Shown here: positions 1 to 43,392 of the stretch, one piece after another | Numbering within the stretch: position 1 is the stretch's first letter | How the letters are laid out: every line of letters begins with the position of its first letter | Source of the DNA: an uncultured bacterium | GTDB lineage: Bacteria; Krumholzibacteriota; Krumholzibacteriia; Krumholzibacteriales; CAZTHK01 | NCBI GenBank assembly: GCA_964613215.1 | Contig: CAZTHK010000026.1 | Span: 1-47,934 of the forward strand | Direction of reading: 5' to 3' | DNA: 47,934 bases | The notes under the pieces: model-generated | Database searches by the model: none | What the model was told of the DNA's origin: nothing | Seen by the model: only the letters and a program-made list of their open reading frames with translations | Program-made: the position numbers and the translations under genes

Positions 1-7
1 GTTGTTA

Positions 8-14400: not shown

Positions 14401-15085
14401 ATGCAACCTTTGCGGAGCTCCCAACACAATTCACCCCGGACAGAAGATGCTGTTCTGCGAATTCTGTGGTTCCGCCGTCGCAATTTCTGATCTCCGAGGT
14501 CCTGAGCATCTTATCCTGCCGCATCAGAGGAACGATCAGATGGCCCGGGAGATGTTAATATCTCATCTTAAATCCAGACGCCGGAAACCGCCCTCCCGGA
14601 TCGAGGCAGATTTCTCTTACCTGCCCTTTTACATGGAGGAGGGAGATGGAACGATCAATCCCCTGGCGGCTGCCAATCCGGGGATGGAAATAATCCCCCC
14701 TTATCCCCCTGCCGGAGATTACAGATTCTTTGAACCTTCCATGGCGGATGAGCAGGAAATCCTGCCCGCCCAAGGGAACAAACCTGAGGCAAGATACCTG
14801 CTTCATCTACCCGTCTATACCCTGAAATATTCAGTTTCCGGGGTAGAACAAACAGCGACGGTAGTGGGTGAAAGCTGGCAGGTGCTGATGGACGAGCTGC
14901 CCCCCCGGAAGGATTTATCGGTAAACAGGATAAACTTTCTGGCAGCAGCTGCGCTTTTCATCCTGTTTCTGTTTGCGGGAAAAATCTCACCAAACATTAC
15001 CGGCCGTACCGCTATCATTGGAACAGCTTCACTAACCGTATTCCTCCTTTATAAAATGCGGGAAAGGCTGGTGAAGAAGGTATGA
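14390..15085 (+). CDS. Zinc-ribbon membrane protein, paralog 1 of 3
   Basis: CNLCGA ... CEFCGS zinc ribbon, SYLPFYMEE motif, C-terminal TM helix. 11-nt overlap with the upstream gene. Confidence 0.55.
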
Positions 15086-18760: not shown

Positions 18761-18847
18761 AACAGGAAATATAAATTCTGGCGGTAGCGGCTCCGGAACA
18801 AGGGGGCGCTTGCTTCAACTGTATTTTTGAAGAGAGGGGGACTATCC

Positions 18848-19729
18848 GTGGAAGGATATCTGGAAGTGGTAAAGGCATGGCTGCTCACCAGCGGCATCCA
18901 GATTGTGGTCATCCTGGTGGGAGCATTTATAGTAATCAGGGTTCTGAGAATACTTATCAATAAATACAGGGAAAAAATGACCTCCGCTGAAAAAATATCG
19001 GCAGAACGTTCAAAGCGGCTGGAGACCCTTTCCGGTATAATCGAGACCACTATAACGGTGGTAGTACTGATCGCGGCTCTGTTGATGGTGTTGAAGGAGG
19101 CGGGCATAGAAATAGCCCCCCTGCTGGCCGGCGCCGGGATAGTAGGCCTGGCGGTAGGCTTCGGAGCACAGAGCCTGGTCAAGGATGTAATCAGCGGCTT
19201 TTTCATCCTGCTGGAGAACCACATGAATGTGGGTGATGTGGTCCGGATAGCAGGGGAGGCCGGGCTGGTGGAATCGATAAACCTGAGAATAACCACCCTG
19301 CGAGACCTGGAGGGGAAGGTTCATGTCATCCCCAACGGCGAGATCAAGGTGGTAACCAATTTTACCAGGGAATGGTCCCGGGCCCTCCTGGAGATCGGAG
19401 TGGCCTATAAGGAGGATGTGGACAGGGTGATAGAGGTGCTCAAGGAGGTGGGGGAGGAATTACGCCAGGATGAGAAATTCGCCCCCCTGATACTGGAACC
19501 CATGGAAATACTGGGGCTGGACAGTTTCGGAAACTCCTCTGTGAATATCAAGTTAATGTTCAAAACACAACCCATCAAGCAGTGGGCGGTGGCCCGGGAA
19601 TACCGCAGGCGGGTCAAGAAGGCCTTCGACCGGGAAAATATCGAGATCCCCTTCCCCCACGTCACCCTCTACATGGGAGAGGGAGAGAATGAAGGGGCAC
19701 TCAAGGTGGATACCAAATCTTCTCAGTAG
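18848..19729 (+). CDS. mscS: Small-conductance mechanosensitive channel (MscS family)
   Basis: Three N-terminal TM helices and an MscS beta-domain. GTG at 18848 preceded by GAGGGGG is the preferred start. The ORF track starts at a TTG at 18827. Confidence 0.8.
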   Translation: MEGYLEVVKAWLLTSGIQIVVILVGAFIVIRVLRILINKYREKMTSAEKISAERSKRLETLSGIIETTITVVVLIAALLMVLKEAGIEIAPLLAGAGIVGLAVGFGAQSLVKDVISGFFILLENHMNVGDVVRIAGEAGLVESINLRITTLRDLEGKVHVIPNGEIKVVTNFTREWSRALLEIGVAYKEDVDRVIEVLKEVGEELRQDEKFAPLILEPMEILGLDSFGNSSVNIKLMFKTQPIKQWAVAREYRRRVKKAFDRENIEIPFPHVTLYMGEGENEGALKVDTKSSQ

Positions 19730-20408: not shown

Positions 20409-21899
20409 ATGCCACCCCAACCGGAGAAGAAACATTCACTGAAAAAACAGACCGCCTTCCTGTTTGCCGGCAAACTGGTAGCGGTAGTCCTCAGGTTTAT
20501 GGTCCCCCTGCTCCTGGTAAGGATGATGTCCCGGCAGGAGTTCGGTCTTTACAAGCAGGCCCTGCTGTTGTGCTTCTTTTTTGTTCCCATACTGCAGTTC
20601 GGGATAACCGACAGCATTCTCTACTTCTACCCCGATAATGAAAAGAAGAAGGAACTGATCTCCCAGACAGTATATCTGTTTCTGCTTATCGGAATGGCAT
20701 TCCTTGCCGCCTTTTACCTCTTCCACCAGAAGCTGCTGCTTCTGTTCAGGGGAGCGGGGCTGGAGGGAGTGGTACAACCGGCAAGCATATTCATATTCTT
20801 CTACTTCATCACCATGTTCTTCGAAAAGGTCCTGATACTGGAGAAGAAGAACAGGGAACTGTTTGCCTATGTGATAGCGGACAGATTTACCTATGTGGCC
20901 TTTATACTCCTGGCAGCCCTGATTTACGGAACTGTTGAAAAAATTCTCTGGTCCCTGGCCCTCTACTCGTTGATCAAGTTCACGGTGGTGCTGTTCTACC
21001 TTAGAATCAAATACAGCTTCCCGGTAAGCATAAAAAAAATATCATGGAACCGGCTCAGGGAACAGCTGGTATTTTCAGTATTTCAGGGAGGCGGCAAGAT
21101 AGTGGGAGAGATAGGGAGAAAGATTGACAAGTTCTATCTTTCCTATTTTCTCAATCCGGCCAGCTTTGCCATCTACAGTGTGGGAAATTTCAGCGTGCCG
21201 GTGATAAACATCATGTGCACCTCGGTAGCCACCACGGCACTGCCCCGGATAAGCCTGCACTATAAAAACAGGAGATACCGGGAAGCGAAAGAGCTGTGGC
21301 ACAGGATAATCACCTACTACAGCCTGGTGACCATCCCCCTGGTAGCCTACTGCTGGGTGATGTCGGAAGAGATAATAACCTTCCTGTTCACCGAAAAGTA
21401 CGCCGACAGTGCAGCCATATTCCAGCTGCTGCTGCTGGTATACCTGACCAAGACATTGAGCCGCGGCACAATAGTAAGAGCTAGCAATAACACCAGATAC
21501 GCATTTCAAGGGAATGTGCTGTCGCTGCTGTGGGGTGTGGCCGCAGGATATTTTCTGATCAGATGGCGGGGTACCGCAGGAGCAGCCCTCTCTGTTGTTA
21601 TATCGCATTACATAAATGCGATATATCAGGTTTACAAATCAAAGGGAATACTGGAGCTGTCCTGGCGGGAATGGCTTCCCTGGAAACAGATGGGTGCCAT
21701 AATGATAATCTCTGTTTCAATGCTGGCGGTTATTCCTTTATTCAAGGGAACCATTTCAACACCGGTTTTACTTATCACAGCCAGCGGACTGGTCTATTCC
21801 GCCCTGGTGCTGGCGGGATATCATTTCGCCGGCTTTGTAAATGTAAGCACTCTCAATGGCAAGCTGAAAGAGAGTTTCGTATTCAACAAACAGTTGTGA
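20409..21899 (+). CDS. Wzx-like polysaccharide/oligosaccharide flippase (MOP superfamily)
   Basis: About 12-14 predicted TM helices and a polysaccharide-biosynthesis-protein signature. The start is taken at the ATG at 20409 with AAAGGA RBS. The upstream 54 codons of the ORF are non-membrane and lack an RBS. Confidence 0.75.
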   Translation: MPPQPEKKHSLKKQTAFLFAGKLVAVVLRFMVPLLLVRMMSRQEFGLYKQALLLCFFFVPILQFGITDSILYFYPDNEKKKELISQTVYLFLLIGMAFLAAFYLFHQKLLLLFRGAGLEGVVQPASIFIFFYFITMFFEKVLILEKKNRELFAYVIADRFTYVAFILLAALIYGTVEKILWSLALYSLIKFTVVLFYLRIKYSFPVSIKKISWNRLREQLVFSVFQGGGKIVGEIGRKIDKFYLSYFLNPASFAIYSVGNFSVPVINIMCTSVATTALPRISLHYKNRRYREAKELWHRIITYYSLVTIPLVAYCWVMSEEIITFLFTEKYADSAAIFQLLLLVYLTKTLSRGTIVRASNNTRYAFQGNVLSLLWGVAAGYFLIRWRGTAGAALSVVISHYINAIYQVYKSKGILELSWREWLPWKQMGAIMIISVSMLAVIPLFKGTISTPVLLITASGLVYSALVLAGYHFAGFVNVSTLNGKLKESFVFNKQL

Positions 21900-21907
21900 G
21901 GGAAAAA

Positions 21908-22777
21908 GTGATCTATCTGGTTCTTGGCATGCATAAATCGGGTACCACCCTGGTATCGCAGATACTGCACAATTCGGGTATCAATATGGGGGATTTCGAC
22001 CAGGAGATATCCTACGACAGGGGGAATACCCTGGAAAGGTTCGAATTCCTGATATATAACACAGCCATAATGAATATCCGCATCCTGGATGCGGGCGTGA
22101 AACAGTACCGCAGGGTAACCACTTTGGAGGGGTTTACCCTCCCCCGCCTGATAAGAAATGTACTGACCCGGGCGGTAGAGAGGCTGGACCGGAAATTCCC
22201 GGAGTGGGGATGCAAGGACCCCCGTATGTGCCTGACCTACCAGGTCTGGAGGGAGATCCTCCCCCTCCACAGGATCATATCGGTAGTGCGCGACCCATTC
22301 GAGGTGGCTGACCGGTACTGCAAGTATGTCAACCGCTTCAGGATACTGAAGAGGCTGGTAACCCGTCTCAGGGTGATCAGTTCATGGTACCTTCACAACA
22401 GTGCTATCCTGGAAATCGTCCGGGACAATGGTCCTGACTGTACGGTGGTGGACTACAACAGGCTGATGAGTGAAGAAGGGGATAAGGAATTCAGAAAGAT
22501 GGAAAAACTTTGCGGCAGGAAACTGACGGATACCAGGGACAGATCCCTCTACCGGAACAGGAAGGGAGACCACACCAGCCTGCTGGACAGGATAATAGAG
22601 ATCTGTTTCAAATATGTACTCAACCGGGACCTCTGCGGCTTGAGGGAGAAATTACTGGATAGCTCATCCCGCATATCAGGCGATGGTGACACCTCCACCG
22701 GAACAGCAAACGAACCTGGAGGGAAGGAAGAAAAACACGGAGGAGTGAAGCTACCGGAACATACCACCGTGGAATAA
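21908..22777 (+). CDS. Sulfotransferase family protein (PAPS-dependent)
   Basis: 5-prime PSB motif VIYLVLGMHKSGTTL. The 5-prime part of ORF 21530 overlaps the flippase and is discarded. GTG start at 21908 (GAGGG RBS), 8 nt after the flippase stop. The alternative start is the ATG at 21929. Confidence 0.7.
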   Translation: MIYLVLGMHKSGTTLVSQILHNSGINMGDFDQEISYDRGNTLERFEFLIYNTAIMNIRILDAGVKQYRRVTTLEGFTLPRLIRNVLTRAVERLDRKFPEWGCKDPRMCLTYQVWREILPLHRIISVVRDPFEVADRYCKYVNRFRILKRLVTRLRVISSWYLHNSAILEIVRDNGPDCTVVDYNRLMSEEGDKEFRKMEKLCGRKLTDTRDRSLYRNRKGDHTSLLDRIIEICFKYVLNRDLCGLREKLLDSSSRISGDGDTSTGTANEPGGKEEKHGGVKLPEHTTVE

Positions 22778-22802
22778 TAATTCTATAGATGGGAATCAAA
22801 GC

Positions 22803-24404
22803 ATGAAATCCACATTCACATATGAAGAAAAAGACTGCAAACAGCAGATTCACGGGAACCGCCCTTCGCCAGTGCATCTGTGGCAATATCCGGCATACCG
22901 GGACCCCCGGGGGGTGTGGCATTCTGAATTCTCCGGAGCGATTAAGAGCAGTAAGGGCCGGATGAGATGGAATCCGGGGGGGATACTCTCATCCATCGCC
23001 TTCAGCTATCCCTGCGGTGACATCACCCTGGTGGAGGGGATCCGAAGGAGTCCCTGGCTATCCGGGATAGACCAGGAGGACGAGGTTGAACTGTCCTCCA
23101 TACCCCCACATGGAAGAACCTGGATGAAACCCCGGGACATTGCCGCCAGGCTGCTGGAACTGCTGGAAGAGGAAGCCCGGGCAGCCTGCCGTTCTCATTC
23201 CGAGATATACATACTCCTATCCGGAGGCCTGGACAGCAGGATCGTGGCAGGTGTTGTGAGCAGGTTAAAGAGGGAGGGGAAGATAGAGGGAGATCTCTAT
23301 GCGGCCACCTGGGGACTGGAAGACTCCAGGGATGTGGTATATGCCCGGGAAATTGCCGGCATGCTGGGACTGGAATGGTGCCATATTCCCATAGGGCCGG
23401 AAACCATTATGGACAACATAGATTTATCCGCCTCCACCGGCAATATGCTTCCCCCCTCCGACCTTCACTGCCTCTCCTGGTTTTCCAGGGTGCCACCCGG
23501 TTCCCTGGTTCTGGCGGGCAGCTACGGGGATTCCATAGGCCGGGGGGAGTACAGCGGACAGCACATTCTGGAGCTGGAACCGCTCATGCCCCGGAACCTG
23601 CTGGAGCTTCTCAAGCCGCCTCCCTTCAACCGGGGAGCGGAAATAATACAGGGGGAGCTGGACAACCTGATGGAGAGATGTGAGGATAAAACCCCGTATG
23701 TGCTGTATGAGCATCAGCAGCAGGGCCACTATATGCGGAGCATGATTGCCCAGGCCATCAGCGTTTTGCTTCCCCGTTGTGACGTCTACCAGATGTTCAC
23801 TGCTCCCCCGGTATATTCATTCATGTGGTCGATCCACCCCTCCATAAGAGACAACCGGACCTATGCTCATCTGCTGGAGCTTATCCACCCCCACCTGGCA
23901 CGGCTCCCCTGGGCCAGGACCAACCGGGCGCTGAGGGGTAGGACAGAGAGAGCCAGAAGAGATGTGAGAAAGCAATTTCACTGCTATGCCGAATGGATAA
24001 GCGGGCCATTGTACCACCGGATCAAAGAGATAGTGGATCCGGGCTGGTTTGAACAGACCGGTATATTCCGGGGCCACAGCATAGAGAAACTTACCCGCAG
24101 CCTGAAACCGGATCAGCAGAGCCTGATGGGAGAAAGTTTCAAACCTTACCGCCTGTGGCTATGGCTGGCCGGCATTCGTAAATTCCATCAGTGGTGCGGG
24201 GAGTATGGTGTAAACCTGGAGTATGATCCCGATTCGCCGGAGAACCGCCATCTTCCCCCCTATCACCCTCCCCGGGATAACAGAACGTCATTAAGGAAAT
24301 TCATCGCCCGGTGGAGAACTGCCAGAACGATCAAGAGAAAGCTCAAGCGGATCATCCTGAAATGGAGAGCAATCAGGGATTATCCTCCTGAACCGGGCAG
24401 ATAG
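22803..24404 (+). CDS. Asparagine synthetase B-like ATP-pyrophosphatase lacking the N-terminal glutaminase domain
   Basis: PP-loop ILLSGGLDS about 140 aa from the N-terminus and an AsnB synthetase-domain C-terminus. No MCGI Ntn nucleophile. Confidence 0.7.
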   Translation: MKSTFTYEEKDCKQQIHGNRPSPVHLWQYPAYRDPRGVWHSEFSGAIKSSKGRMRWNPGGILSSIAFSYPCGDITLVEGIRRSPWLSGIDQEDEVELSSIPPHGRTWMKPRDIAARLLELLEEEARAACRSHSEIYILLSGGLDSRIVAGVVSRLKREGKIEGDLYAATWGLEDSRDVVYAREIAGMLGLEWCHIPIGPETIMDNIDLSASTGNMLPPSDLHCLSWFSRVPPGSLVLAGSYGDSIGRGEYSGQHILELEPLMPRNLLELLKPPPFNRGAEIIQGELDNLMERCEDKTPYVLYEHQQQGHYMRSMIAQAISVLLPRCDVYQMFTAPPVYSFMWSIHPSIRDNRTYAHLLELIHPHLARLPWARTNRALRGRTERARRDVRKQFHCYAEWISGPLYHRIKEIVDPGWFEQTGIFRGHSIEKLTRSLKPDQQSLMGESFKPYRLWLWLAGIRKFHQWCGEYGVNLEYDPDSPENRHLPPYHPPRDNRTSLRKFIARWRTARTIKRKLKRIILKWRAIRDYPPEPGR

Positions 24405-24465
24405 CGGAAAATGTACCTGTGGATGATAAAACAAAAGTCCCACCCGGGGGAAAAAACTAAAGTCA

Positions 24466-24486
24466 CAGTTTCAGTCTCCGAAACTG
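24466..24486. promoter_or_regulatory. Inverted repeat CAGTTTCAG-N-GAAACTG between the asnB-like and asnB genes; a third copy of the GTTTCAG ... GAAAC motif
   Basis: 7-bp stem and 7-nt loop in the 171-bp spacer upstream of asnB. Confidence 0.35.
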
Positions 24487-24575
24487 AGGAAAACGAACCT
24501 GAAAGATAAAAGGGAACCCGGATAATCCAGAACCATATGAGGAGTTGCGGGTTCCGGTCGAAAAGGGAAACAGAT

Positions 24576-26576
24576 ATGTGCGGAATCGCAGGAATACTGC
24601 ACTTTAATTCGGAAAGAAGTGTGAACGGCAGGCTGCTGGATGATATGACAGATATTCTCCGTCACCGGGGCCCTGACGGCCGGGGGACCTTCACCGATGG
24701 TAATATCGGCCTGGGACACAGGAGGCTGGCCATCATCGATCTCCACACCGGGCAGCAACCCATGGCCAGCGGCGACCGGAAGATATGGATAGTGGTCAAC
24801 GGAGAAATCTACAACTACCTTGATCTTAAAGCGATACTTTCCAGCAAGGGGCACCGCTTCCAGACCGGATCGGACAGCGAAGTGATCATCCACGCCTACC
24901 GGGAATGGGGAACCGATTGTGTGAAAAAATTTAACGGAATGTTCGCCTTCGCCCTGTGGGACTGCAGCCGTAAACGCCTCATACTGGCCAGGGACAGGCT
25001 GGGGATCAAGCCGCTCTACACCACCGTGGTGGACGGAACCCTCCTGTTCGCCTCCGAGATCAAATCATTACTGACCTGCCCCGGAGTGGAGAGGAGGGTG
25101 GATCCCGAAGCCATATCAAGCTATCTGGGCTACCGTCATGTGCTGGGTGAGGGCACCCTGTTCAGGGGAATAAACAAGCTCAAGCCGGGCCACCTGCTGA
25201 TCTCTGAGAATGGCTATCTCTCCAGTGTTCAGTACTGGGATGTGCCGGTCTATACTGAAAGGGAAGACCGGGGAGAGGAGTACTACACCAGCCGGGTGCG
25301 GGAGATGCTGAAGGAATCGGTCAAGCGCAGGATGATGAGCAATGTGCCACTGGGAGCTTATCTGAGCGGGGGACTGGACAGCTCCATCGTGGTAGCACTA
25401 CTTTCGGAGATGAGTGATGATCCGGTAAAGACCTATACCGTGGCATTCCCCCAGGAGGATTTCAGCGAAAGGCGCTACGCCTCCATGGTTGCCTCCGGAT
25501 GCGAAACCGACCACACCGAGGTCATGATAGACGACAGCAGCTACATGGATATGATACCCCGGCTGATCAGGTTCAAGGATGCTCCTCTGGCGGTGGCCAA
25601 TGAAGTGCCGCTCCATCTGATGTCCAGGGAATTGAAGAAGGATATAACGGTGGTGCTGTCGGGGGAGGGAGCGGATGAACTGTTCGGGGGATACGGAAGG
25701 ATATTCCGAAGCCCCTTCGACTACCAGAGATCACGGTTTCTGGAGAATCACCGCCACCTGCTTCCGGAGTACCGGAATATACTGATGGATAAATTCTCCG
25801 ACATTTACGGAAGCTCGGTCTTTCTCAATGAGACAGATCATTTCATGAGAAAATATCATTATCTCAGTCCCCTGGACAGGGAGACCTTCCTGACTCCCGG
25901 CATGCTGGATCAGACTGAGGGGGACAGCTACATCAGGGAACACTTCGAGAAGCAATTCAGGGAGGCGGAGGGACTATCTCACTACCACAAGATTCTATAT
26001 ATCTTTCAGAAGACCCACCTCCAGAATCTCCTGATGCGGGTGGATATGACCACCATGGCCACGTCTGTGGAGGCCCGGGTCCCCTTTGTGGACCATCAGC
26101 TGGTCGAATTCGTGCTGTCCATACCTTTTCACTACAAGGTAAGGTGGAAGAGTGAAATGCACCGGCAGATGGCCGCCCTGCTGTCCAGCGACGAACTGAG
26201 CGAAAATTATGACACCACCAAGTACATCCTCAAGAGGGCCTTCCGGGATGACCTTCCCCGTCAGATTATCGACCGCAGGAAGATGGGATTTCCGGTGCCT
26301 CTTAACAGATGGCTGGGGGGCAATTATATGTCCCGGGCAAAGGAGATCCTGCTGGACCGCCGCACCGCCTCCCGGGGGATAATCGATGTTTCCGCAGTGG
26401 AGAAAGAGCTTGCCAGTCAGAGGATTAAGGAGCATTCCACCGCTCTGAAGATGTGGATGCTGATGAACCTGGAGATCTGGTTCAGGGAATACATTGACCA
26501 ATGGGAAGGAGGAAAGGTTCCGGAAGAGGAAACAAGCTCGAAGGAAGCTCCCACTCACCGGACCGTACAGATATGA
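24576..26576 (+). CDS. asnB: Asparagine synthetase (glutamine-hydrolysing) family amidotransferase, full length
   Basis: MCGIAGI Ntn class-II glutaminase start, PP-loop YLSGGLDSS. The start is the ATG at 24576. Stop overlaps the next start (ATGA). Confidence 0.85.
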   Translation: MCGIAGILHFNSERSVNGRLLDDMTDILRHRGPDGRGTFTDGNIGLGHRRLAIIDLHTGQQPMASGDRKIWIVVNGEIYNYLDLKAILSSKGHRFQTGSDSEVIIHAYREWGTDCVKKFNGMFAFALWDCSRKRLILARDRLGIKPLYTTVVDGTLLFASEIKSLLTCPGVERRVDPEAISSYLGYRHVLGEGTLFRGINKLKPGHLLISENGYLSSVQYWDVPVYTEREDRGEEYYTSRVREMLKESVKRRMMSNVPLGAYLSGGLDSSIVVALLSEMSDDPVKTYTVAFPQEDFSERRYASMVASGCETDHTEVMIDDSSYMDMIPRLIRFKDAPLAVANEVPLHLMSRELKKDITVVLSGEGADELFGGYGRIFRSPFDYQRSRFLENHRHLLPEYRNILMDKFSDIYGSSVFLNETDHFMRKYHYLSPLDRETFLTPGMLDQTEGDSYIREHFEKQFREAEGLSHYHKILYIFQKTHLQNLLMRVDMTTMATSVEARVPFVDHQLVEFVLSIPFHYKVRWKSEMHRQMAALLSSDELSENYDTTKYILKRAFRDDLPRQIIDRRKMGFPVPLNRWLGGNYMSRAKEILLDRRTASRGIIDVSAVEKELASQRIKEHSTALKMWMLMNLEIWFREYIDQWEGGKVPEEETSSKEAPTHRTVQI

Positions 26577-27316
26577 GAGTTATAATTCTTGCCGCCGGCC
26601 AGGGCAAACGCCTCTATCCCCTGACCAAGAACTGCCCCAAGAGCCTTCTGGAGATAGGAGGAGGGAGAAGTGTACTGGAGAGCCAGCTGAAGTGTGTAAG
26701 GGAAACAGGCCTGAAGGATGTCACCATAGTCACCGGCTACAAGACCGAACAGATAGAGGCCAAGATCAAGGATATCGAGGATATAGACATCTCCATATGC
26801 TATAACCCCTTCTTTGCTACCAGCAATAACCTGATCTCCGCCTGGCTGGCAGTGAGGGAGACCGGAGAAAACTTCGTGCTGGTAAACGGGGATGATGTGT
26901 TCAAGCCTCATGTGCTGCAGGGGCTGCTTGATTCCGGCCACCCCATAACCATGGTGATAGACAGAAAGGAAAGCTACGATACCGACGACATGAAGGTGGT
27001 AACCAGGGATGATCACATCATCAAGGTCAGCAAGGAGATTCCCCCGGAAGAGGCCAATGGCGAATCCATAGGTATGATGCTGTTCAGGGGCAAGGGCAGA
27101 TCCATTATAGGGGAGACCCTTGAATCCATGGTAAGGGATGAAGAGAGCAAACAGATATTCTATCTGGCCGCTCTGCAGAAGATAATGGATATGGGATATC
27201 CGGTGAGATATTTCGAGTGTGCACCGGAGGACTGGGCGGAGATAGATTTTCACTCCGACCTCTCCTTCATCCGGGAACACATCAACAGGTATGCCGCCGA
27301 CATTGTCAAGATATGA
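26573..27316 (+). CDS. Sugar-phosphate / phospho-alcohol nucleotidyltransferase (LicC / MobA-like NTP_transferase family, probably a cytidylyltransferase)
   Basis: MRVIILAAGQGKRLYPLT nucleotide-binding start. ATGA overlaps at both ends. Confidence 0.8.
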   Translation: MRVIILAAGQGKRLYPLTKNCPKSLLEIGGGRSVLESQLKCVRETGLKDVTIVTGYKTEQIEAKIKDIEDIDISICYNPFFATSNNLISAWLAVRETGENFVLVNGDDVFKPHVLQGLLDSGHPITMVIDRKESYDTDDMKVVTRDDHIIKVSKEIPPEEANGESIGMMLFRGKGRSIIGETLESMVRDEESKQIFYLAALQKIMDMGYPVRYFECAPEDWAEIDFHSDLSFIREHINRYAADIVKI

Positions 27317-28089
27317 GGGCTGATATGGAATCCACAGCTGAACTGAAAAGGATCTGCAGGAGGGAAAACTACCGGGATAACCTCAAGACCATGTTCTTTG
27401 CAGCCAGGGTGTCCATCTATTTTACCCGGCTGCTTCTGATGCTGAATCTTACCGCCAACCAGGTGACCGTGATGTTCATATTCGCCGGGATAGCTTCAGC
27501 CATCTCTTTTCTGGGTCAGGGGCTGTGGTGGTTCGCCGCCGGTTATCTGCTGCAACGTATGCATGTAATACTGGATGTTTGCGACGGGGAGGTTGCCCGT
27601 TACCGCCAGACCTTCAGCCCGGTTGGGGGTTATCTGGACTTTCTCACCCACTACTTCGTCTATGCCCTTATCCTGTTCTTCATCTCCCTGAGGCTGTATC
27701 TGGACACCGGATGGTTCCCCGCCCTGATAGCGGGATTCGTTCTGGTTATCTCAAATACCATGATTCGGGCCGCCACCGACTGCTGGTTCAGAGCCAACTT
27801 CAATAGCAGCGGGCGGGATGAGATAGAGGAGGGAAGAAATCAAGAGAAAAGAAGCTCTCTCCCCGGCTGGCTGAAGAAGGTTATACTTCTGGCCGCCCAT
27901 ACCACCAGCATCCAGACATTTTTGAACGCTTATCTGATAGCAGTGATAATGGCGGAATATTCTGAACTGGATATCAGGATGTATATCCTGACCGGATATG
28001 CCGTTATTCTATTCCTGTTTTCCATAGTAAGGATAGCTTTTACAATAAAGAGAGGTAAAATCCCGAGGAGAGCGACCTATTACAAGTGA
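27313..28089 (+). CDS. CDP-alcohol phosphatidyltransferase family protein
   Basis: DVCDGEVARYRQTFSPVGGYLD matches D-x2-DG-x2-AR ... G-x3-D. Multiple TM helices. ATGA overlap with the upstream nucleotidyltransferase. Confidence 0.75.
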   Translation: MRADMESTAELKRICRRENYRDNLKTMFFAARVSIYFTRLLLMLNLTANQVTVMFIFAGIASAISFLGQGLWWFAAGYLLQRMHVILDVCDGEVARYRQTFSPVGGYLDFLTHYFVYALILFFISLRLYLDTGWFPALIAGFVLVISNTMIRAATDCWFRANFNSSGRDEIEEGRNQEKRSSLPGWLKKVILLAAHTTSIQTFLNAYLIAVIMAEYSELDIRMYILTGYAVILFLFSIVRIAFTIKRGKIPRRATYYK

Positions 28090-28229
28090 ACAGATCAAAA
28101 CCGGAGGAGAAGCAGCCAGCCCGCCGTACTTCCACTGAATAAGAACTCTCTCCGGCAGCGGAAAAGCAACTGCAGAAAACAATAAATGAGGGAAGCCGTA
28201 CTTATGATTATAAACAGGAATTCCGGATA

Positions 28230-29438
28230 ATGAGAATCTGCCGAATCGCATCCTTTCCCACTGATACCTCTCCCGGAACCGGCCTGCCCGGATATTTTCT
28301 GTGCAAGGCAATCAGGGTTCCCACCCTTTTCCTGACCAGGAGGGTGCCGGGGCTCAAAAACGCTCCCCCCCATGTAAGGCTGAATCCGGTTCCCTATTTC
28401 AATCCGCCCTTCGGAGAGAGAATCGATCCCTTCCGCCTGGTGGCAAAGCTTGCAGGGCTGTTCCTCTTCTTCGTTGCCTCCATTCCCTCCATGGTGAGGT
28501 TTCGCCCGGACATCGTGCACATCCACTCCCCCCACTATATTCCCCATGCCATCTTTGCCAGATTCATCCTGGGGGCCAGAGTGTGTGTAACTTTTCACGG
28601 CTCCGATCTTCTGAGAATAAGAAGAAGCCGGCTGCTTCAGAGTCTGCTCAAAGTAACCGCGGACAGGTTCTTCTATGTTTCCACATCCATGCAGGATGAT
28701 CTGAAGAAATTCATACCTTCAGACAGAATGGTATATACCCCCAACGGGGTGGATCCGGAGAGATTCAGAGACCTGGGGATGAAAAGAGAGCGCAGGGTAG
28801 TTGCGGTGGGTAACCTGAGATGGCAGAAGGGATATCAGTACCTGATAGAAGCATTCTACTCGCTGAAAAACACTGGGTACACTCTGGTTATCGTGGGAGA
28901 GGGTCCTCTGCGGGGGGAACTTCAGGCACTTATCGACAAGCTGAACCTGGGGGAAAGGGTACTTCTGGCCGGCAGGAAGAATCATCAACAGATCATCCGG
29001 CTGCTTAACACCAGCAGGTTGTTCGTAATGTCCTCTCTGTCGGAAGGATTTCCCAAGGCTCTGGTGGAAGCCATAGCATGCGGCCTGCCCGTGGTGGTAA
29101 CCGGTGCGGGTTGCTGCAGGGAAGTTTCCGGAGAGGTGGGATTATGCGTGGAACCGGGGCGGGTAGAGTCATTGGCCCGGGCACTGAGAAAGATGATAGA
29201 GAATAACGAGCTGAGGGAGAAATTTGCTGAAAACACCGGCAAAACCGCCTCCCGGTATTCCTGGAACCGGTCCTGCCGGAAAGTAGCAGAGAGTTACTCG
29301 GAACTCACCGGCGGAAAATTGCCTGCAGAGACCGATACAGGCATTCCGGAGGAATCCCCAGCCCGGAGCAGCTCCGGCTGTTCGGATAAAGTGAGTGAAA
29401 CGGTATCGGCCCTTCCGGGGAACAGCTCCTCATCATAA
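28230..29438 (+). CDS. GT4-family (GT-B fold) glycosyltransferase with Ser-rich C-terminal tail
   Basis: RVVAVGNLRWQKGYQYLIEAF ... MSSLSEGFPKALVEAIACGLPVVVT EX7E-type motif. Confidence 0.85.
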   Translation: MRICRIASFPTDTSPGTGLPGYFLCKAIRVPTLFLTRRVPGLKNAPPHVRLNPVPYFNPPFGERIDPFRLVAKLAGLFLFFVASIPSMVRFRPDIVHIHSPHYIPHAIFARFILGARVCVTFHGSDLLRIRRSRLLQSLLKVTADRFFYVSTSMQDDLKKFIPSDRMVYTPNGVDPERFRDLGMKRERRVVAVGNLRWQKGYQYLIEAFYSLKNTGYTLVIVGEGPLRGELQALIDKLNLGERVLLAGRKNHQQIIRLLNTSRLFVMSSLSEGFPKALVEAIACGLPVVVTGAGCCREVSGEVGLCVEPGRVESLARALRKMIENNELREKFAENTGKTASRYSWNRSCRKVAESYSELTGGKLPAETDTGIPEESPARSSSGCSDKVSETVSALPGNSSSS

Positions 29439-29636
29439 TGCCTCCGTCATTCGGCCATTCCTCCCCCGGGGATAAACCTTCAATTTTACAGAGAATTGAT
29501 AACACCCGGGTATTAAAGCGGTGGCCGGGGGATTTAATTAAATCCAAAAAATTTCTTTATTTATTGCCTGTTTACATATAGATTACTCTAAAAATATTCG
29601 CCGGGTTTCGGGTTTGAAATTCAGCAGGAACTGATT

Positions 29637-30560
29637 ATGACCGAAAAATTGGGAATAGCTCTCGGCTCCGGAGGAGCCAGAGGATTGTGCCAGATAGGCA
29701 TACTCCTGTGGCTGCAGGAACATGAGATAAGACCGGACTTCATCTCGGGATGCTCCATAGGTTCAGTTATCGGGGGACACACTGCAGCGGGATACTCTCC
29801 CGGTTATCTCAAGAAAACAGCCCTGGATATAAACTGGCTTGATCTGGTGAAGTGGCTGCAGCTCTCCTTCAGGGGAACCAGTATATTCACCTGGGATAAG
29901 ATCCTGGAGTTTCTCACTCAAACCCTGGGTGGCAGGAACATAGAAGAACTGGAAATCCCCTTTGCCTGTGTGACCACTGACATAAACACTGGTCAGGAAC
30001 ACGTTTTCGACAGCGGCGACCTGCTCAAGGCGGTCTCGGCTTCCAGTGCCATAGCAGGAATTTTCCCCCCGGTACCATGGGAAGAAAAACTGTTTGTGGA
30101 TGGAGAACTGGTCAATCCGGTTCCCCTGGATATAGCCTTCAGACTGGGTGCGGATAAGGTAATAGGAGTAAATTGCAACAGGCCGGTACAACGGAAGATG
30201 GCCCGGCAGGAAGACTCCCCTTCATTAGTGGAAAAAATGGAGGAATGGGTCAAGCAAAGTGCGGAGAAGGGTCCGGAACAGGTATCCCGGATATATGACA
30301 AGATGTCAGATTCGCTGCAGAAAATTTCCGGGGATAAGCGAGACAGGATGTTCTATGAGATAATCTCAGACAGTTATGCTGTTTTATCCTCTCAGATACT
30401 TCAGTATAAACGCAGTGAAACCGGGCCGCATCTGATGATCGAACCGGAGGTGGGCAAATACGGGGTTTTCGATTTTGAAAAAGCGGAAACTCTGATAGAA
30501 GCAGGATACAATGAAATGGAGTCGAGAGAGCACGATCTCCTCGAATTCCTGAAACAGTAG
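29637..30560 (+). CDS. Patatin-like phospholipase
   Basis: Oxyanion GSGGARG, nucleophile GCSIG (GxSxG), catalytic Asp in VDGELVNPVP. Confidence 0.8.
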   Translation: MTEKLGIALGSGGARGLCQIGILLWLQEHEIRPDFISGCSIGSVIGGHTAAGYSPGYLKKTALDINWLDLVKWLQLSFRGTSIFTWDKILEFLTQTLGGRNIEELEIPFACVTTDINTGQEHVFDSGDLLKAVSASSAIAGIFPPVPWEEKLFVDGELVNPVPLDIAFRLGADKVIGVNCNRPVQRKMARQEDSPSLVEKMEEWVKQSAEKGPEQVSRIYDKMSDSLQKISGDKRDRMFYEIISDSYAVLSSQILQYKRSETGPHLMIEPEVGKYGVFDFEKAETLIEAGYNEMESREHDLLEFLKQ

Positions 30561-30576
30561 GGAAAGGCCGGGCTCG

Positions 30577-31404
30577 ATGCAGCATACGGAGTATCTGTCC
30601 AATATATCCAGCCAGCAATTATTAATCTCCCTGGTGGTGGTCTCCTGCTTTCTCTTCCCTTTGTCCGGTACCGGCCTGGCTGCCGGCGGCGGCAGCACCG
30701 GGGTTGAGAATACACCGCCGGCCCGGGACAGCCTGTCCTCGGATACTTCTTCCGTGGATCTCGAAAAATACAAATGGGTTGCCGGGCAATCTTCAACGGA
30801 GGCAAAGATATTCCGGGTGCTCAATACCCATTTTGCCAATCCGGCACTGGATGCCGTAATGCCAATAATTACTGACTTCAGGAGAAACAGGATATTCGTC
30901 CTGATGGTCTGGGCTGCCCTGGTGATCTTCGGAGGTTCCCGGGGCAGATGGGCAGCCCTGATGCTGATACCGCTGATAGCGGCATCCGATCAGCTTTCCA
31001 GCAGCCTGCTGAAACCGCTATTTGCCCGAATCCGTCCCTGTGAGATACTGGGGGAAATCAGACTCTGGCACGGTGCGGAGGGGTGGATCACCACCTCTGC
31101 TGAAACAGCCAGAAGCTACAAGGGTTCCTTCTCCTTTCCCTCCGGTCATGCCACCAACATTACCGCCTCCATGCTCTTTCTGAGCCTGGTGTACCGCAAA
31201 CTGATAATACCCCTGCTGGTGCTGGCGCTGGCTGTCTCCTATTCCAGAATATATGTTGGTGTTCACTGGCCCCTGGATGTGCTGGCGGGCATGGCCACAG
31301 GAGCAGCTCTGGCCTTTCCGGCATACTTCCTGTACCAGTGGCTCCGGGGAATTCCCCCCAGGAAATCCAAACTGCCCACCTCCCCGGGAAAGGATCAGAG
31401 CTAA
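30577..31404 (+). CDS. PAP2-family membrane phosphatase
   Basis: KPLFARIRP / SFPSGHA / SRIYVGVHWPLD tripartite PAP2 motif. Signal/TM N-terminus with Ser/Thr-rich linker. Confidence 0.8.
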   Translation: MQHTEYLSNISSQQLLISLVVVSCFLFPLSGTGLAAGGGSTGVENTPPARDSLSSDTSSVDLEKYKWVAGQSSTEAKIFRVLNTHFANPALDAVMPIITDFRRNRIFVLMVWAALVIFGGSRGRWAALMLIPLIAASDQLSSSLLKPLFARIRPCEILGEIRLWHGAEGWITTSAETARSYKGSFSFPSGHATNITASMLFLSLVYRKLIIPLLVLALAVSYSRIYVGVHWPLDVLAGMATGAALAFPAYFLYQWLRGIPPRKSKLPTSPGKDQS

Positions 31405-31445: not shown

Positions 31446-32225
31446 TCACCGGGGGTATCCCACCGGTATGATCAGGGCGGGTTCACAGCCCTCCGGCAGG
31501 GACAGAATATCACTCACTTCCCGGTCACTGAAAGCACCCACCGCCACACTTCCCAGCTCCAGGGCAACAGCCTGCAGCATCAGGTTCTCCGCTGCACAGC
31601 CAACTTCCATCTGTACATACCGGTCAGCCCTCTCCCCGTATACCGCTTCGGTCCTGGAGGGAACAGCAGTTATGACAAAAACCAGGGGTGCCCGGGCAAA
31701 CCACATCTGGCGGTAGGAGGCCTCCGCCAGTGATCTGCGAACGTCCTCCGTCTTTACCACTACCAGGCTGTGTTCTGCGGGTATATACCTGGCCAGGCAG
31801 CCTTCCGCAGCCAGATAGAGCTCCAGCGGATATGTGGCTCCGGCGGAGGGAGCACTTCTGAACTGGTTCTGCTCATCGGTTATCCCCTGTGCTGCCGACA
31901 GAAGCATGGAAATATTCTCCCCGGGGGGAACCCCCTCCTGGTAGTCCCTGATGGAGCGGCGTTCAGCTATGGCTTCCCTCACCGTAATATCACCCCTGCC
32001 CCCTACCGGTGGAAGGGATATGGTATCTCCCGGGCGGGATGAGGTAAAATCGATCATCTTTCCCACTCTCCCTCTTTCTTTCTCTCCGGTTAAGGCGCCG
32101 GAGTCAGAATCCTCAGTAAAATCATCTTTTACACAGCAGCTGACCGCTGCTCCCGGCTGGTAAAAAGCCAAGACCAGCGCCAATACTGTTACTAAAACAC
32201 CTGATAAGAGTTTTCTGCTAATCAT
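31446..32225 (-). CDS. SagB/ThcOx-type nitroreductase-fold protein with N-terminal signal peptide or lipobox
   Basis: Nitroreductase-family core (REAIAERRSIRDY ... GCAAENLMLQAVALELGSV). N-terminal hydrophobic segment ending AVSCC. ATG at 32225 chosen over the upstream GTG at 32246. Confidence 0.65.
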   Translation of the reverse strand: MISRKLLSGVLVTVLALVLAFYQPGAAVSCCVKDDFTEDSDSGALTGEKERGRVGKMIDFTSSRPGDTISLPPVGGRGDITVREAIAERRSIRDYQEGVPPGENISMLLSAAQGITDEQNQFRSAPSAGATYPLELYLAAEGCLARYIPAEHSLVVVKTEDVRRSLAEASYRQMWFARAPLVFVITAVPSRTEAVYGERADRYVQMEVGCAAENLMLQAVALELGSVAVGAFSDREVSDILSLPEGCEPALIIPVGYPR

Positions 32226-32463
32226 GACAGTTCCGTCCCCTTCCACATATGCCGGTCAACCGTTTCCGGTATATCAGCGGCGATAATAAATTAAGGTATC
32301 CCCGGTCAGGCCGGGAGCACTTATCCATGAAATACCAGCCTGGCTCAAAGTCCCCCTGGAAACATTACATTTCACCAGTCTGCGGGCAGATAAAACCTCT
32401 GCCCTCCCGTTTTTATGATTAAATCAACATACCATCTTCAATACAATATGTTATTATGAAAGC

Positions 32464-34116
32464 ATGAAAAAAGAATCGGGAATATTAAAGAAAGCAATAA
32501 TTACAGGAGCAGCTGCTCTGATTATACGCCTGGTTCATTTTCTGCTGAGCTGGAGATATAATCCCCTTGACGGGGATCTGGTGCTGGATGCAAGAATTTA
32601 TCACAACTGGGCGGTTGCCCTGACCAGGGGAGGTGATCCCGGCCCCACCCAGCTGATGCAGTCTCCCCTCTACCCCTGGCTGATCTCACTGGTCTACCGC
32701 ATCACCGGTCCCCTGCCGGACGCAGTCTTTCTCCTTCAGGCAGTAGCCGGAGCGGTCTCCTGCGCCCTGATAGTTATAATAACCAGACGCCTGTTCAACT
32801 CAACCGGAGCAGCCCTGACAGCCGGAATTGCCGGAGCAGTCTATCTTCCCCTCATATTCTATCAGCAGGTAATGGTGCCGGCTACATTGATCATACTGCT
32901 TAATCTGATATTTGTAACCCTGCTGGTCCCGGAGGAGCCTATGCCGGGAAAATCAAGAACCTTCTCCGCAGGTGTAGCTCTGGGTCTCTCCGTGATGGCC
33001 AAACCGGTGGCACTGCTTCTGCTCCCCTTTGCCCTGATTCATATAATCACAGTAGGGGGCAGAGTCCTTCCGGGTTTCCGGGATATTATAACAGGAAAAA
33101 GTCACCCATCCGGAAACTCATCGAAGCAACATAAATACCCGGGTACGAATTCTGCCTTCCTTCCCTCCTCAAGGGAAAAAACAGTTCTCTCTCTGATAAT
33201 GCTGGCAGGCCTGATTCTATCAATCAGCCCGCTTACCATAAGAAACGCAGTCCTGACCGGAGAATTCATACCCCTTACCACCGGCGGGGGAATCAACTTC
33301 TACATCGGGAATAACAGGGGAGCGAACGGGTACTACAGCGTTCCGGAGTACCGGGGCGGGTCGCTGGGGGGCACACCGGTGGAACAGTGGCACCGGATGA
33401 CCGTAACTGCTGAACGGGAACTGGGGAGAGATCTTACCGGGGGGGAGATATCACGGTTCTGGCTGGAGAAGGGTCTTCAGTATATCCGGAGGCACCCGGC
33501 GGACTGGCTGGGGCTGTTGTGGCAGAAATTCATCTTCTTCTGGAACAGTTACGAGAGGGCCAATGTGGAAAGCTTTCAATTCCACAGGCGTTTTCCCGGC
33601 CTGCTGGGGCTGCCCCTGCTGCTGTTCGGAATAGTGGCGCCTCCGGCGGTGCTGGGAATATTCCTTACCCGCAACCACCGGAGGGAACTGTGGCTGCTGT
33701 ACGGGGGAGTGATCACATACCTGCTGGCAGCTCTGGCTTTCTACGTGCTGGGCAGATACAGATTGCCGGTGGTACCCTTCCTGTTACCATTCCTCGGGGC
33801 AGCTCTGTGGGAAATAGTATCCCTGGTCAGGAGCAGGAGGATATCCGAGCTGGTGCTTGCTCTGGCAGCCCTGTCTGTGCTGTTCTTCTTTTCCAACATG
33901 ACCGTGGCCAGAGACACCCGGGCGGGAACCTCCGGAAAACTGACCAGGCTGGGACGGGTGTATCTGGATGAGGGAGATACCACCCGGGCAGTATCCTCCT
34001 TCAGAGAGGCCCTTGACTCTGATCCGGACAACCGGCAGGCTGCCCGGTTCCTGAACATGATCAAAACAAAAATTCCGCCGGCTGAAAGAATGAAAAACTC
34101 CATGCAGGGAAAGTAG
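32464..34116 (+). CDS. GT39/GT83-like (PMT_2 / ArnT-type) polytopic membrane glycosyltransferase with C-terminal TPR repeat
   Basis: About 10 TM helices, conserved acidic first loop (NPLDGDLVLDARIYHNWA), C-terminal TPR-like YLDEGDTTRAVSSFREALDSDPDN. Confidence 0.65.
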   Translation: MKKESGILKKAIITGAAALIIRLVHFLLSWRYNPLDGDLVLDARIYHNWAVALTRGGDPGPTQLMQSPLYPWLISLVYRITGPLPDAVFLLQAVAGAVSCALIVIITRRLFNSTGAALTAGIAGAVYLPLIFYQQVMVPATLIILLNLIFVTLLVPEEPMPGKSRTFSAGVALGLSVMAKPVALLLLPFALIHIITVGGRVLPGFRDIITGKSHPSGNSSKQHKYPGTNSAFLPSSREKTVLSLIMLAGLILSISPLTIRNAVLTGEFIPLTTGGGINFYIGNNRGANGYYSVPEYRGGSLGGTPVEQWHRMTVTAERELGRDLTGGEISRFWLEKGLQYIRRHPADWLGLLWQKFIFFWNSYERANVESFQFHRRFPGLLGLPLLLFGIVAPPAVLGIFLTRNHRRELWLLYGGVITYLLAALAFYVLGRYRLPVVPFLLPFLGAALWEIVSLVRSRRISELVLALAALSVLFFFSNMTVARDTRAGTSGKLTRLGRVYLDEGDTTRAVSSFREALDSDPDNRQAARFLNMIKTKIPPAERMKNSMQGK

Positions 34117-43376: not shown

Positions 43377-43392
43377 ATCAAGCTCCTGGCAG

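Follow-up and report, generated by a model that had tools for sequence, protein, structure and literature searches.

A nine-gene locus with a conserved core

We analyzed a 47,934-nt contig (CAZTHK010000026.1, assembly GCA_964613215.1) from an uncultured member of the Krumholzibacteriota, called the window here in its full length, and within it a locus at 20409-31404 that had been predicted to make a sulfated, amidated and phospho-alcohol-bearing glycan or glycolipid. The open reading frames (ORFs) and their start-codon context give nine genes in this interval, all on the plus strand (Table 1), as do separate gene calls on the identical Logan contig. The original prediction counted eleven, although its own title names nine functions. 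Its description of the genes as co-directional and closely spaced is borne out by the ORFs, and HMM annotation of each protein upheld all of its family assignments at the Pfam level, with the weakest matches being those of the sulfotransferase and the CDP-alcohol phosphotransferase (CDP-AP).

Table 1. Genes of the locus and the conserved downstream glycosyltransferase, with their Pfam matches
Feature	Coordinates	Strand	Pfam match
MOP/Wzx-type flippase, type A	20409..21899	+	PF13440 8e-21, PF01943 9e-17
Sulfotransferase-fold protein	21908..22777	+	PF13469 2e-9, 38.5 bits (cutoff 27)
AsnL, AsnB-superfamily PP-loop enzyme	22803..24404	+	PF00733 1.8e-11, N-terminal part only
AsnB, full-length glutamine-dependent type	24576..26576	+	GATase_7 4e-49, Asn_synthase 7e-90
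NTase, alcohol/sugar-phosphate nucleotidyltransferase	26573..27316	+	PF00483 (NTP_transferase) 5e-14
CDP-AP, six transmembrane helices, His-type clade	27325..28089	+	PF01066 (CDP-OH_P_transf) 25.6 bits (cutoff 22)
GT4 retaining glycosyltransferase	28230..29438	+	PF00534 2e-39
Patatin-like phospholipase (RssA-like)	29637..30560	+	PF01734 1e-29
Membrane PAP2 lipid-phosphate/pyrophosphate phosphatase	30577..31404	+	PF01569 2e-23
GT-C glycosyltransferase (PMT_2, ArnT/PMT-like) with C-terminal TPR	32464..34116	+	PF13231 3e-11 plus TPR

The order AsnB – nucleotidyltransferase (NTase) – CDP-AP – GT4 – (variable small gene) – PAP2 – ... – PMT_2(+TPR) is common to four contigs of metagenome-assembled genomes (MAGs); the relatives compared are L002 (GCA_003369535.1), L003/L004, L005 (GCA_964584495.1) and L096 (GCA_003369425.1). 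Its recurrence in at least four MAG contigs besides the window, with amino-acid identities of 49-76%, shows that the arrangement is not due to chance. Identities between the window and L002/L005 are 74-76% for NTase, 56-72% for PAP2, 63-64% for AsnB, 55-64% for CDP-AP, 53-57% for GT4, 50-54% for AsnL and 49% for PMT_2. AsnL and a MOP flippase lie directly upstream of the core in three of the four relatives. At the other end, the PMT_2 glycosyltransferase with its TPR region is a conserved partner that the original prediction missed; it occupies the same relative position in L002, L005 and L096 (49% identity).

The sulfotransferase and the patatin are absent from the relatives L002, L003, L005 and L096. 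The nine genes are thus not a single conserved unit: the core recurs without these two, and the flippase and sulfotransferase occur without the core in two further loci (L094 and L095, see below). Only about a dozen clusters hold the nearest homologs of the CDP-AP (55-65% identity), and the named ones among them come from Candidatus Krumholzibacteriota and Latescibacteria MAGs. The combination is conserved only in a small uncultured lineage; to our knowledge, neither Krumholzibacteriota nor Latescibacteria has cultured members.

ATGA overlaps had been described as chaining AsnB, NTase and CDP-AP. The overlap is real at the first junction, where the NTase start lies on the AsnB stop, but the second is more likely a gap. 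Here the ATGA at 27313 is an alternative CDP-AP start; because all homologs begin MES..., which corresponds to the ATG at 27325, and GAGGG lies upstream of that codon, translation probably starts there, 8 nt past the NTase stop. The remaining intergenic gaps are, in order, 8, 25, 171, 140, 198 and 16 nt. The sulfotransferase starts at a GTG preceded by GAGGG, and its homologs begin MIY.... GC content is 0.48 over the flippase/sulfotransferase region versus 0.52-0.57 downstream. Neither Rfam models nor a tRNA search gave a match in the window, the 680 nt upstream of the flippase included.

We scanned with Pfam ORFs of at least 180 aa outside annotated genes across the 48-kb window (the scanned ORFs). 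Among these, there is no phosphoglycosyltransferase (PGT; Bac_transf, Glycos_transf_4), no Wzy/Wzy_C and no Wzz, the flippase alone being present. The related core loci L002, L003/L004 and L005 likewise carry no Bac_transf, Glycos_transf_4, Wzy_C or Wzz domains. The earlier statement that no initiating PGT or Wzy/Wzz is visible is therefore correct for the window, and it is reasonable to set the locus apart from classical O-antigen clusters.

A CDP-alcohol phosphotransferase clade with histidine at the proposed base position

The window's CDP-AP scores above the PF01066 gathering threshold, and its homologs carry precomputed PF01066 annotation. Its best sequence matches in the PDB are AF2299 (4e-11) and IPCT/DIPPS (1.5e-6). 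An AlphaFold model (AF2, built on 15 sequences; pLDDT 84.6, pTM 0.82) predicts the six-transmembrane (TM) fold of the family, which has its nucleotide site on TM1-3, together with a juxtamembrane helix. Foldseek searches with this model returned AF2299 (E 1e-6, TM-score 0.61-0.64, probability 1.0), followed by DIPPS and then by the phosphatidylinositol-phosphate synthases (PIPS).

CDP-APs share the signature D1xxD2G1xxAR...G2xxxD3xxxD4, comprising eight residues described as "absolutely conserved" (PMC4634129). The last of these, D4, is described as the probable catalytic base, and its change to Asn leaves PIPS with almost no activity (PMC4634129). The enzyme in the window reads DVCDGEVAR-x8-GGYLD-FLT-H, or DxxDGxxAR...GxxxDxxxH, and so keeps seven of the eight (D1, D2, G1, A, R, G2 and D3). 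The residue aligned to D4 of AF2299 and DIPPS is a histidine, His113 in the numbering of a 258-aa protein, and the protein is in this respect not canonical.

This substitution extends well beyond the window. In our initial family alignment, every member but one has histidine at D4. Among 80 loci from GTDB species representatives, the position is His in 66, Ala in 13 (Streptomyces) and Asp in none, with one locus (L062) giving no signature match. A profile search of 1.84 billion representatives found at least 624 clusters (50% identity) at E ≤ 1e-30. In the best 151 representatives, D1, D2 and G1 are invariant (100%), A is kept in 148, R in 149 and G2 in 142, and D3 is Asp in 140 and Glu in 11; D4 is His in 143 and Asp in one. 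As histidine dominates all three samples, it is a property of the clade rather than a local mutation. The residues of the nucleotide/metal site are thus preserved while the proposed base is replaced. No member of the clade was found to have been characterised or to have a solved structure.

Alanine at D4 (...YLDRLGA/YLDRVGA) is seen in L014, L017, L026, L029, L038, L050, L052, L055, L067, L072, L084, L086 and L088, all from Streptomyces and its relatives; the proposed base position of this branch thus offers no carboxylate and no imidazole. In two representative proteins (P0351 and P0367), a canonical CDP-AP with Asp at D4 and a His-type CDP-AP are fused in one polypeptide. The two types are also neighbouring genes at L011:3340-5383, where a DUF5941 gene lies between them and an ABC-2 exporter follows. 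As CDP-APs are dimers, these arrangements are a hint that the two types act as a heterodimer or one after the other in Actinomycetota.

The partner nucleotidyltransferase

The NTase matches LicC (1jyk) with an E-value of 3.7e-14 and about 40% identity, over residues 2-112 only, leaving its C-terminal half unaligned. A second match, to 4jd0 ("Nucleotidyl transferase", 3.2e-9), spans residues 3-231; we take this structure to be the T. maritima inositol-1-phosphate cytidylyltransferase. The N-terminal half also matches MurU and RmlA-type enzymes. PntC (6pd1) scores 7e-6, and the matches as a whole favour none of LicC, PntC and IPCT over the others. The best NCBIfam matches are generic (Arch_glmU, MurU, AglF), and the IPCT/DIPPS model NF041135 gives 53 bits against a cutoff of 580. 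The label "LicC-like" is accordingly too specific, since the LicC match is confined to the N-terminal 110 residues, 4jd0 aligns weakly but from end to end, and the scores stay far from every NCBIfam equivalog cutoff. Naming at the equivalog level was likewise rejected for the CDP-AP, GT4 and PAP2, all of which score far below the NCBIfam cutoffs and receive no substrate assignment.

We presume that the NTase is a cytidylyltransferase, with specificity for CTP taken solely from its partner enzyme. Together, the two form a plausible couple for activating and transferring a phospho-alcohol, as had been proposed. The same proposal called this pair and the sulfotransferase family uncommon, which holds among characterised loci but not in genomes, where both are widespread.

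Two AsnB homologs, one without a glutaminase domain

The 666-aa AsnB begins MCGIAG, with the catalytic Cys1 of class II amidotransferases, and has an SGGLDS PP-loop. It scores 503 bits with TIGR01536 (cutoff 267), as expected of a glutamine-dependent asparagine synthetase B, and 530.5 bits with TIGR03108, below the cutoff of 816.9 for the XrtA/PEP-CTERM exopolysaccharide (EPS) amidotransferase. The gene is syntenic in L002 and L005. A housekeeping role in asparagine synthesis is unlikely given its fixed position across relatives and the presence of AsnA in the same window; with a separate AsnA available, AsnB need not be the housekeeping enzyme. AsnA (aspartate-ammonia ligase, 41821-42879) is one of three genes in a row at 41821-44880 on the minus strand, the others encoding a peptide deformylase and a 495-aa GATase_7-only protein, which is a third class-II amidotransferase-type protein in the window.

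AsnL has neither a glutaminase domain nor an N-terminal Cys, and with 31 bits for TIGR01536 it is not an asparagine synthetase B. Its SGGLDSR PP-loop is invariant in 38 homologs. An AF2 model (pLDDT 91.7) finds its best fold match in the hydroxyamidotransferase TsnB9 (7ylz; E 5e-11, TM-score 0.6), followed by carbapenam synthetase, beta-lactam synthetase and asparagine synthetases, all of which form amides by adenylating a carboxylate. The AsnL family has at least 379 matches at 40-47% identity across phyla. In one genome each of Thermodesulfobacteriota and Sedimentisphaerales (Planctomycetota), its members lie in polysaccharide loci with Wzy, several GT4s and a flippase; the Sedimentisphaerales locus (L093) also has a Bac_transf PGT. 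The suggestion that the AsnB homologs belong to polysaccharide-type settings thus finds a parallel in classical Wzx/Wzy loci elsewhere, and because the family lies in such loci, the analogy supports a role for AsnL in amidating glycan carboxylates.

GT4, patatin and PAP2

GT4 is the sole Leloir glycosyltransferase in the locus and is syntenic in L002 and L005. Its nearest solved relatives are BshA (2jjm, 3mbo, 5d00) and MshA (7qsg), and EPS-type GT4 models score alike, so these matches are uninformative about the acceptor. A reading of this protein as part of a defence system, from a "GT4-conflict" Pfam match, was discarded, as this match is weak, secondary and below the generic GT4 models.

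The patatin has the expected oxyanion loop (GGxR(G), here GSGGARG), nucleophile motif (GxSxG, here GCSIG) and DG dyad (VDGE), and scores 154 bits with the RssA equivalog NF007623 (cutoff 272). It is found only in this genome, and unrelated hypothetical proteins of 201-247 aa take the same position in the relatives; the patatin is probably an unrelated passenger.

PAP2 forms the conserved tail of the locus, being 56-72% identical in L002, L005 and L094. All three motifs of its family (KX6RP, PSGH and SRX5HX3D) are intact, as KPLFARIRP, FPSGH and SRIYVGVHWPLD. The best NCBIfam match is to the undecaprenyl-diphosphatase SepP (75 bits, cutoff 250), and PDB matches are to PgpB/YodM and LpxE, such that the protein resembles SepP/UppP-, PgpB- and LpxE-type enzymes. 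Its N-terminal hydrophobic segment is a possible signal peptide or TM helix.

A flippase and a sulfotransferase that travel together

The flippase of the window (type A) is 69% identical to that of L094 and 41-44% to that of L095, and in both loci a sulfotransferase homolog (66% and 48% identity, respectively) directly follows it. In L094, the next gene after the sulfotransferase is a PAP2 that is 71% identical to the window's. L095, from Latescibacteria, has no NTase/CDP-AP core nearby. Type A has no BLAST match at E ≤ 1e-3 to the flippases of L002 and L005 (type B), which are nearer to a Planctomycete flippase abutting a His-type CDP-AP than to type A. These comparisons indicate that flippase A and the sulfotransferase are a separate two-gene module. 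In the window, this module sits in the slot of type B, directly upstream of AsnL with a 25-nt gap. As the module stands where the usual flippase would be, we infer a cargo-matched swap, in which case the sulfotransferase would act on the product of the locus. Such an exchange would fit a match between Wzx flippases and the cargo they move.

The sulfotransferase consists of about 250 aa and a 35-aa low-complexity tail, and has 323 homologs at E ≤ 1e-3. The KSGTT motif reported earlier is present as HKSGTT at residues 9-14, within an LGMHKSGTT segment that is invariant in 16 homologs. In addition to its Pfam match, the protein thus has the xKxGTT 5′-phosphosulfate-binding loop of sulfotransferases dependent on 3′-phosphoadenosine-5′-phosphosulfate (PAPS). 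R106, R128 and S/T residues are also conserved, but they could not be matched to the 3′-phosphate-binding motif; PAPS is a putative donor. A PDB sequence search with this protein returned no meaningful match.

On the minus strand at 8726-10447, the window encodes a 573-aa fusion of an adenylate-forming (AMP-binding/CapK-like) domain to a PanD-like aspartate decarboxylase. A 50%-identical copy in L095 is divergent from the flippase A-sulfotransferase pair and lies beside a stand-alone Asp_decarbox gene. The fusion gene may be linked to the sulfotransferase module.

The His-type clade in other phyla and the likely identity of the alcohol

Outside Krumholzibacteriota, the His-type CDP-AP is found beside genes for envelope polymers. 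In a Planctomycete locus (L007), it abuts a MOP flippase. A WOR-3 locus (L063) has the order B12-radical SAM, NTase, CDP-AP(H), Wzy_C, PMT_2, LPG_synthase_TM, radical SAM, methyltransferase, GT4. Recurrent neighbours in Microbacteriaceae are two GT2 genes, a TagF-like Glyphos_transf gene, an ABC-2 permease with its ATPase and a MobA-like NTase. In Streptomyces, members of the clade occur with tagGH-type ABC genes; a 2026 synteny survey counts this Streptomyces set, made up of CDP-AP, GT2, sugar-phosphate NTase, tagG, tagH and araM, among its orphan proteins (PMC13118837). In 51 of the 80 loci, the CDP-AP gene has a homolog of the NTase within 10 kb. Such surroundings assign the clade to envelope glycopolymer synthesis.

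Seven actinobacterial loci (L020, L024, L045, L047, L084, L086 and L088) share the order NTase – Fe-ADH_2 protein – CDP-AP – ABC-2 exporter. For the Fe-ADH_2 protein, the best NCBIfam match by far is the NAD(P)-dependent glycerol-1-phosphate (G1P) dehydrogenase (238-247 bits, cutoff 413). The NTases of these loci match that of the window with 94-122 bits and 29-33% identity over the full length, and only the NTase of the WOR-3 locus scores higher. Because of these triads, we favour glycerol phosphate as the donor alcohol, with inositol phosphate as the main alternative. For the Krumholzibacteriota enzyme, this is the most economical guess, as tblastn finds no G1P-dehydrogenase homolog in the window. 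A myo-inositol-1-phosphate synthase (MIPS) domain is likewise missing from the scanned ORFs and from L002, L005 and L096.

Two metagenome contigs found through the CDP-AP homolog P0014 (L009:1800-8901 and L010:43-7144) pair the clade with another sulfotransferase-fold protein. Their first gene encodes a 1017-aa fusion of NTP_transf_3, PPDK_N and PEP-utilizers domains. A Peptidase_C26 glutamine amidotransferase comes next, and after it an NTase, a His-type CDP-AP, a Sulfotransfer_1 protein and, last, a methyltransferase. Genes one and two, together with the methyltransferase, resemble what we take to be the C. jejuni Cj1416/Cj1418/Cj1417 route to CDP-phosphoramidate 3′-phosphate. By this analogy, the "sulfotransferase" of these contigs might use CDP-phosphoramidate 3′-phosphate as a PAPS-like donor, the product of a pathway cited in PMC11800397. 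The protein has no detectable BLAST similarity to the sulfotransferase of the window, and the contigs represent a second, independent association of NTase, CDP-AP(H) and sulfotransferase fold.

A proposed pathway and its competitors

Based on the protein families, their intact catalytic motifs, two protein folds, the preserved order of the genes and the exchange of flippase and sulfotransferase as a module, we propose that the locus makes a Wzx-dependent, lipid-linked, phospho-alcohol-bearing and amidated short envelope glycoconjugate, which is sulfated in this genome. This proposal is tentative, and we would put its probability at roughly 45%. Its substrates, the order of its steps and the use of CTP are as we would predict them. 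At the cytoplasmic face, the NTase would activate a small alcohol (polyol) phosphate with CTP, most likely glycerol phosphate or alternatively inositol phosphate. The six-TM CDP-AP, acting on the same face, would then take the CDP-alcohol as donor and attach its phospho-alcohol to a membrane-bound acceptor, and the single GT4 would add one sugar. AsnB, with glutamine, and AsnL, which without a glutaminase would use free ammonia or another amine, would turn carboxylates into amides. In this genome only, the sulfotransferase would add sulfate, its dedicated flippase standing in for the usual one. The MOP flippase would carry the unit to the periplasmic face, where the PMT_2/TPR GT-C protein may pass it to the final acceptor and PAP2 may recycle or trim the lipid phosphate.

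Several observations weigh against this pathway. Replacement of D4 by histidine could mean altered or lost activity, given the D4N mutant of PIPS. A six-TM architecture is typical of CDP-APs with soluble acceptors (PMC4634129). No initiating PGT, polymerase or ligase is visible among the scanned ORFs, which makes the lipid acceptor a guess; these ORFs also include no gene for synthesis of an alcohol phosphate (MIPS, G1P dehydrogenase, TagD-type) or of PAPS. In L096, which holds the closest CDP-AP homolog (65%), a divergent second full-length AsnB (1-1904, minus strand) lies where AsnL and the flippase would be expected, and the contig ends there. Gaps of 140-200 nt precede AsnB, GT4 and the patatin, and scans for promoter and terminator consensus sequences gave matches at chance level, such that co-transcription is predicted from spacing. 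Finally, as the flippase-sulfotransferase module also exists without the core, the sulfotransferase may act on another substrate.

A serious competitor, to which we nonetheless assign rather low odds, is a glycophospholipid made by Kennedy-type logic. Here the CDP-alcohol (CDP-inositol or CDP-glycerol) would react with diacylglycerol, GT4 would act next, as PimA or PIG-A does on phosphatidylinositol, and the product would be a membrane lipid that the flippase moves to the outer leaflet. The matches of both NTase and CDP-AP to the IPCT/DIPPS model, and of the CDP-AP also to the phosphatidylinositol-phosphate (PIP) and archaetidylinositol-phosphate synthase models, fit such a route, as does the presence of one Leloir glycosyltransferase only. 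PAP2 and patatin are lipid enzymes, although the patatin is not conserved, and an LPG_synthase_TM gene stands beside the NTase/CDP-AP pair in L063, as in Bacteroides clusters. However, neither MIPS nor a HAD gene is present in the scanned ORFs or in related loci. The 254-aa six-TM CDP-AP lacks the extra C-terminal helices tied to lipid acceptors (PMC4634129), the relatives of AsnL sit in Wzx/Wzy polysaccharide loci, and the conserved downstream GT-C protein suggests onward transfer of the product.

We also consider it unlikely that the nine genes are modules juxtaposed by rearrangement without a shared product, namely flippase A with the sulfotransferase (and PAP2), AsnB-NTase-CDP-AP-GT4, and the patatin as a passenger. 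The contiguity of flippase A, sulfotransferase and PAP2 in L094 with no core between them would follow naturally from this idea, together with the core-free pair in L095 and the core loci that lack a sulfotransferase. The lower GC content of the flippase/sulfotransferase region and the 171-nt gap before AsnB point the same way. Against this, flippase A lies exactly in the flippase-B slot upstream of AsnL, with a 25-nt gap before AsnL, which looks like a functional replacement rather than a random juxtaposition, and the scanned ORFs include no other flippase.

A long shot with larger consequences concerns the reaction itself: the His/Ala-type CDP-APs could be mechanistically distinct initiating transferases. 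Their nucleophile would be polyprenyl phosphate, a lipid phosphate, in place of an alcohol that depends on a carboxylate base. If so, they would make polyprenyl-diphospho-alcohol (or polyprenyl-phospho-alcohol) primers for envelope glycopolymers. Such an initiating role would fit because no conventional PGT is found in the visible part of the Wzx-/Wzy-associated loci of Krumholzibacteriota, WOR-3 and Planctomycetes.

Highly improbable, finally, is a soluble compatible solute of the DIPPS type, a di-inositol-phosphate or glycero-phospho-inositol phosphodiester made by NTase and CDP-AP, glycosylated by GT4, amidated and exported by the MOP protein: the closest solved relatives of the CDP-AP (AF2299 and IPCT/DIPPS), its six-TM "soluble acceptor" architecture, the small soluble acceptors of BshA and MshA and an MscS channel gene just upstream in this genome would suit it, but the clade abounds in teichoic-acid-like loci of mesophilic Actinomycetota (ABC-2 exporters, TagF-like, GT2) and associates with Wzy_C, PMT_2 and flippases, the CDP-AP scores 47 bits with the DIPPS model (cutoff 580), MscS is absent from related loci and the scanned ORFs contain no MIPS gene.

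Comparison with known systems

The closest structural counterpart of the CDP-AP is the AF2299/IPCT-DIPPS group (Archaeoglobus fulgidus, PDB 4o6m, 4mnd), which matches it best in both sequence and fold. Common to the two sides are six TM helices with a juxtamembrane helix, the residues D1 to D3 of the signature (including G1, A, R and G2), an N-x-x-T motif in TM1 and a partner enzyme with the NTP_transferase fold that resembles a cytidylyltransferase. In contrast to this group, the window's protein has histidine at D4 and no AF2299-like N-terminal cytoplasmic domain; its NTase is a separate gene rather than fused, neither protein approaches the NF041135 cutoff of 580 bits (NTase 53, CDP-AP 47), and the setting is that of an envelope glycoconjugate instead of osmolyte synthesis.

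Bacteroides vulgatus and Prevotella have a putative, experimentally unconfirmed alternative inositol-lipid cluster of MIPS, NTP transferase, CDP-AP and HAD genes (PMC9246714). We compared this cluster by its description only, and it is the closest described analogue of the Kennedy-type route. An NTP_transferase-domain gene beside a CDP-AP in an FCB-group bacterium is common to both, and Kennedy-like logic, with a CDP-alcohol as donor to a membrane acceptor, was proposed there (PMC9246714). The window differs in lacking MIPS and HAD and in having AsnB, AsnL, GT4, flippase, PAP2 and GT-C. The B. vulgatus CDP-AP was found through the full DX2DGX2AR...GX3DX3D motif and so carries D4, unlike that of the window (PMC9246714).

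The actinobacterial loci with NTase, G1P-dehydrogenase (araM-like), CDP-AP and tagGH are alike in having a CDP-AP of the same clade (His or Ala at D4), close NTases and an envelope glycopolymer setting. They differ in ABC-2 rather than Wzx export, in their G1P-dehydrogenase-like, GT2 and TagF-like genes and in the absence of AsnB, AsnL, GT4 and GT-C; their hosts are Gram-positive, and their proteins are likewise uncharacterised. Wzx/Wzy loci with AsnB-type amidotransferases, such as those for PEP-CTERM/XrtA EPS (TIGR03108), similarly place a MOP flippase, GT4, an AsnB-type enzyme and a sulfotransferase side by side, and the AsnL family itself is found in such loci. In comparison, the window has no PGT, Wzy or chain-length regulator, a single Leloir glycosyltransferase, an AsnB below the TIGR03108 cutoff and the NTase/CDP-AP pair in addition.

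Literature searches on this combination of genes and on DUF5941 turned up nothing that describes such a system. The locus is a new combination of known enzyme families, not a new principle, and it offers a first genetic handle on the envelope chemistry of Krumholzibacteriota/Latescibacteria. The CDP-AP clade that it contains is large, uncharacterised and signature-breaking, and consistently sits in envelope glycopolymer loci beside a dedicated NTase. Knowing which donor and acceptor it uses, and by what mechanism, would close a gap in the biosynthesis of teichoic-acid-like and phospho-alcohol glycoconjugates, including in cultivable Actinomycetota.

Neighbouring genes

Upstream of the locus, at 13252-17132 on the plus strand, the gene for an SPFH/Band-7 protein with a triple double-zinc-ribbon tail precedes those of three hypothetical zinc-ribbon/TM proteins without a Pfam match. 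This four-gene set lies directly upstream of the flippase in L002, L003 and L005, where the hypothetical proteins are 37-47% identical to those of the window. In the window itself, a GAF-SpoIIE phosphatase (17441-18760) and the MscS channel (18827-19729) separate the set from the flippase.

Between PAP2 and PMT_2, L002 (14715-16504) and L005 (14840-16625) encode a Na_sulph_symp/CitMHS (DASS) transporter and a 123-aa zinc-ribbon-like protein; these core loci have no sulfotransferase. At this position, the window instead has a nitroreductase on the reverse strand (31446-32246). A second PMT_2 GT-C glycosyltransferase lies at 38062-39387 on the minus strand, and the interval between the two PMT_2 genes encodes a 1171-aa hybrid histidine kinase with Reg_prop/Y_Y_Y sensor domains (34348-37863, plus strand).

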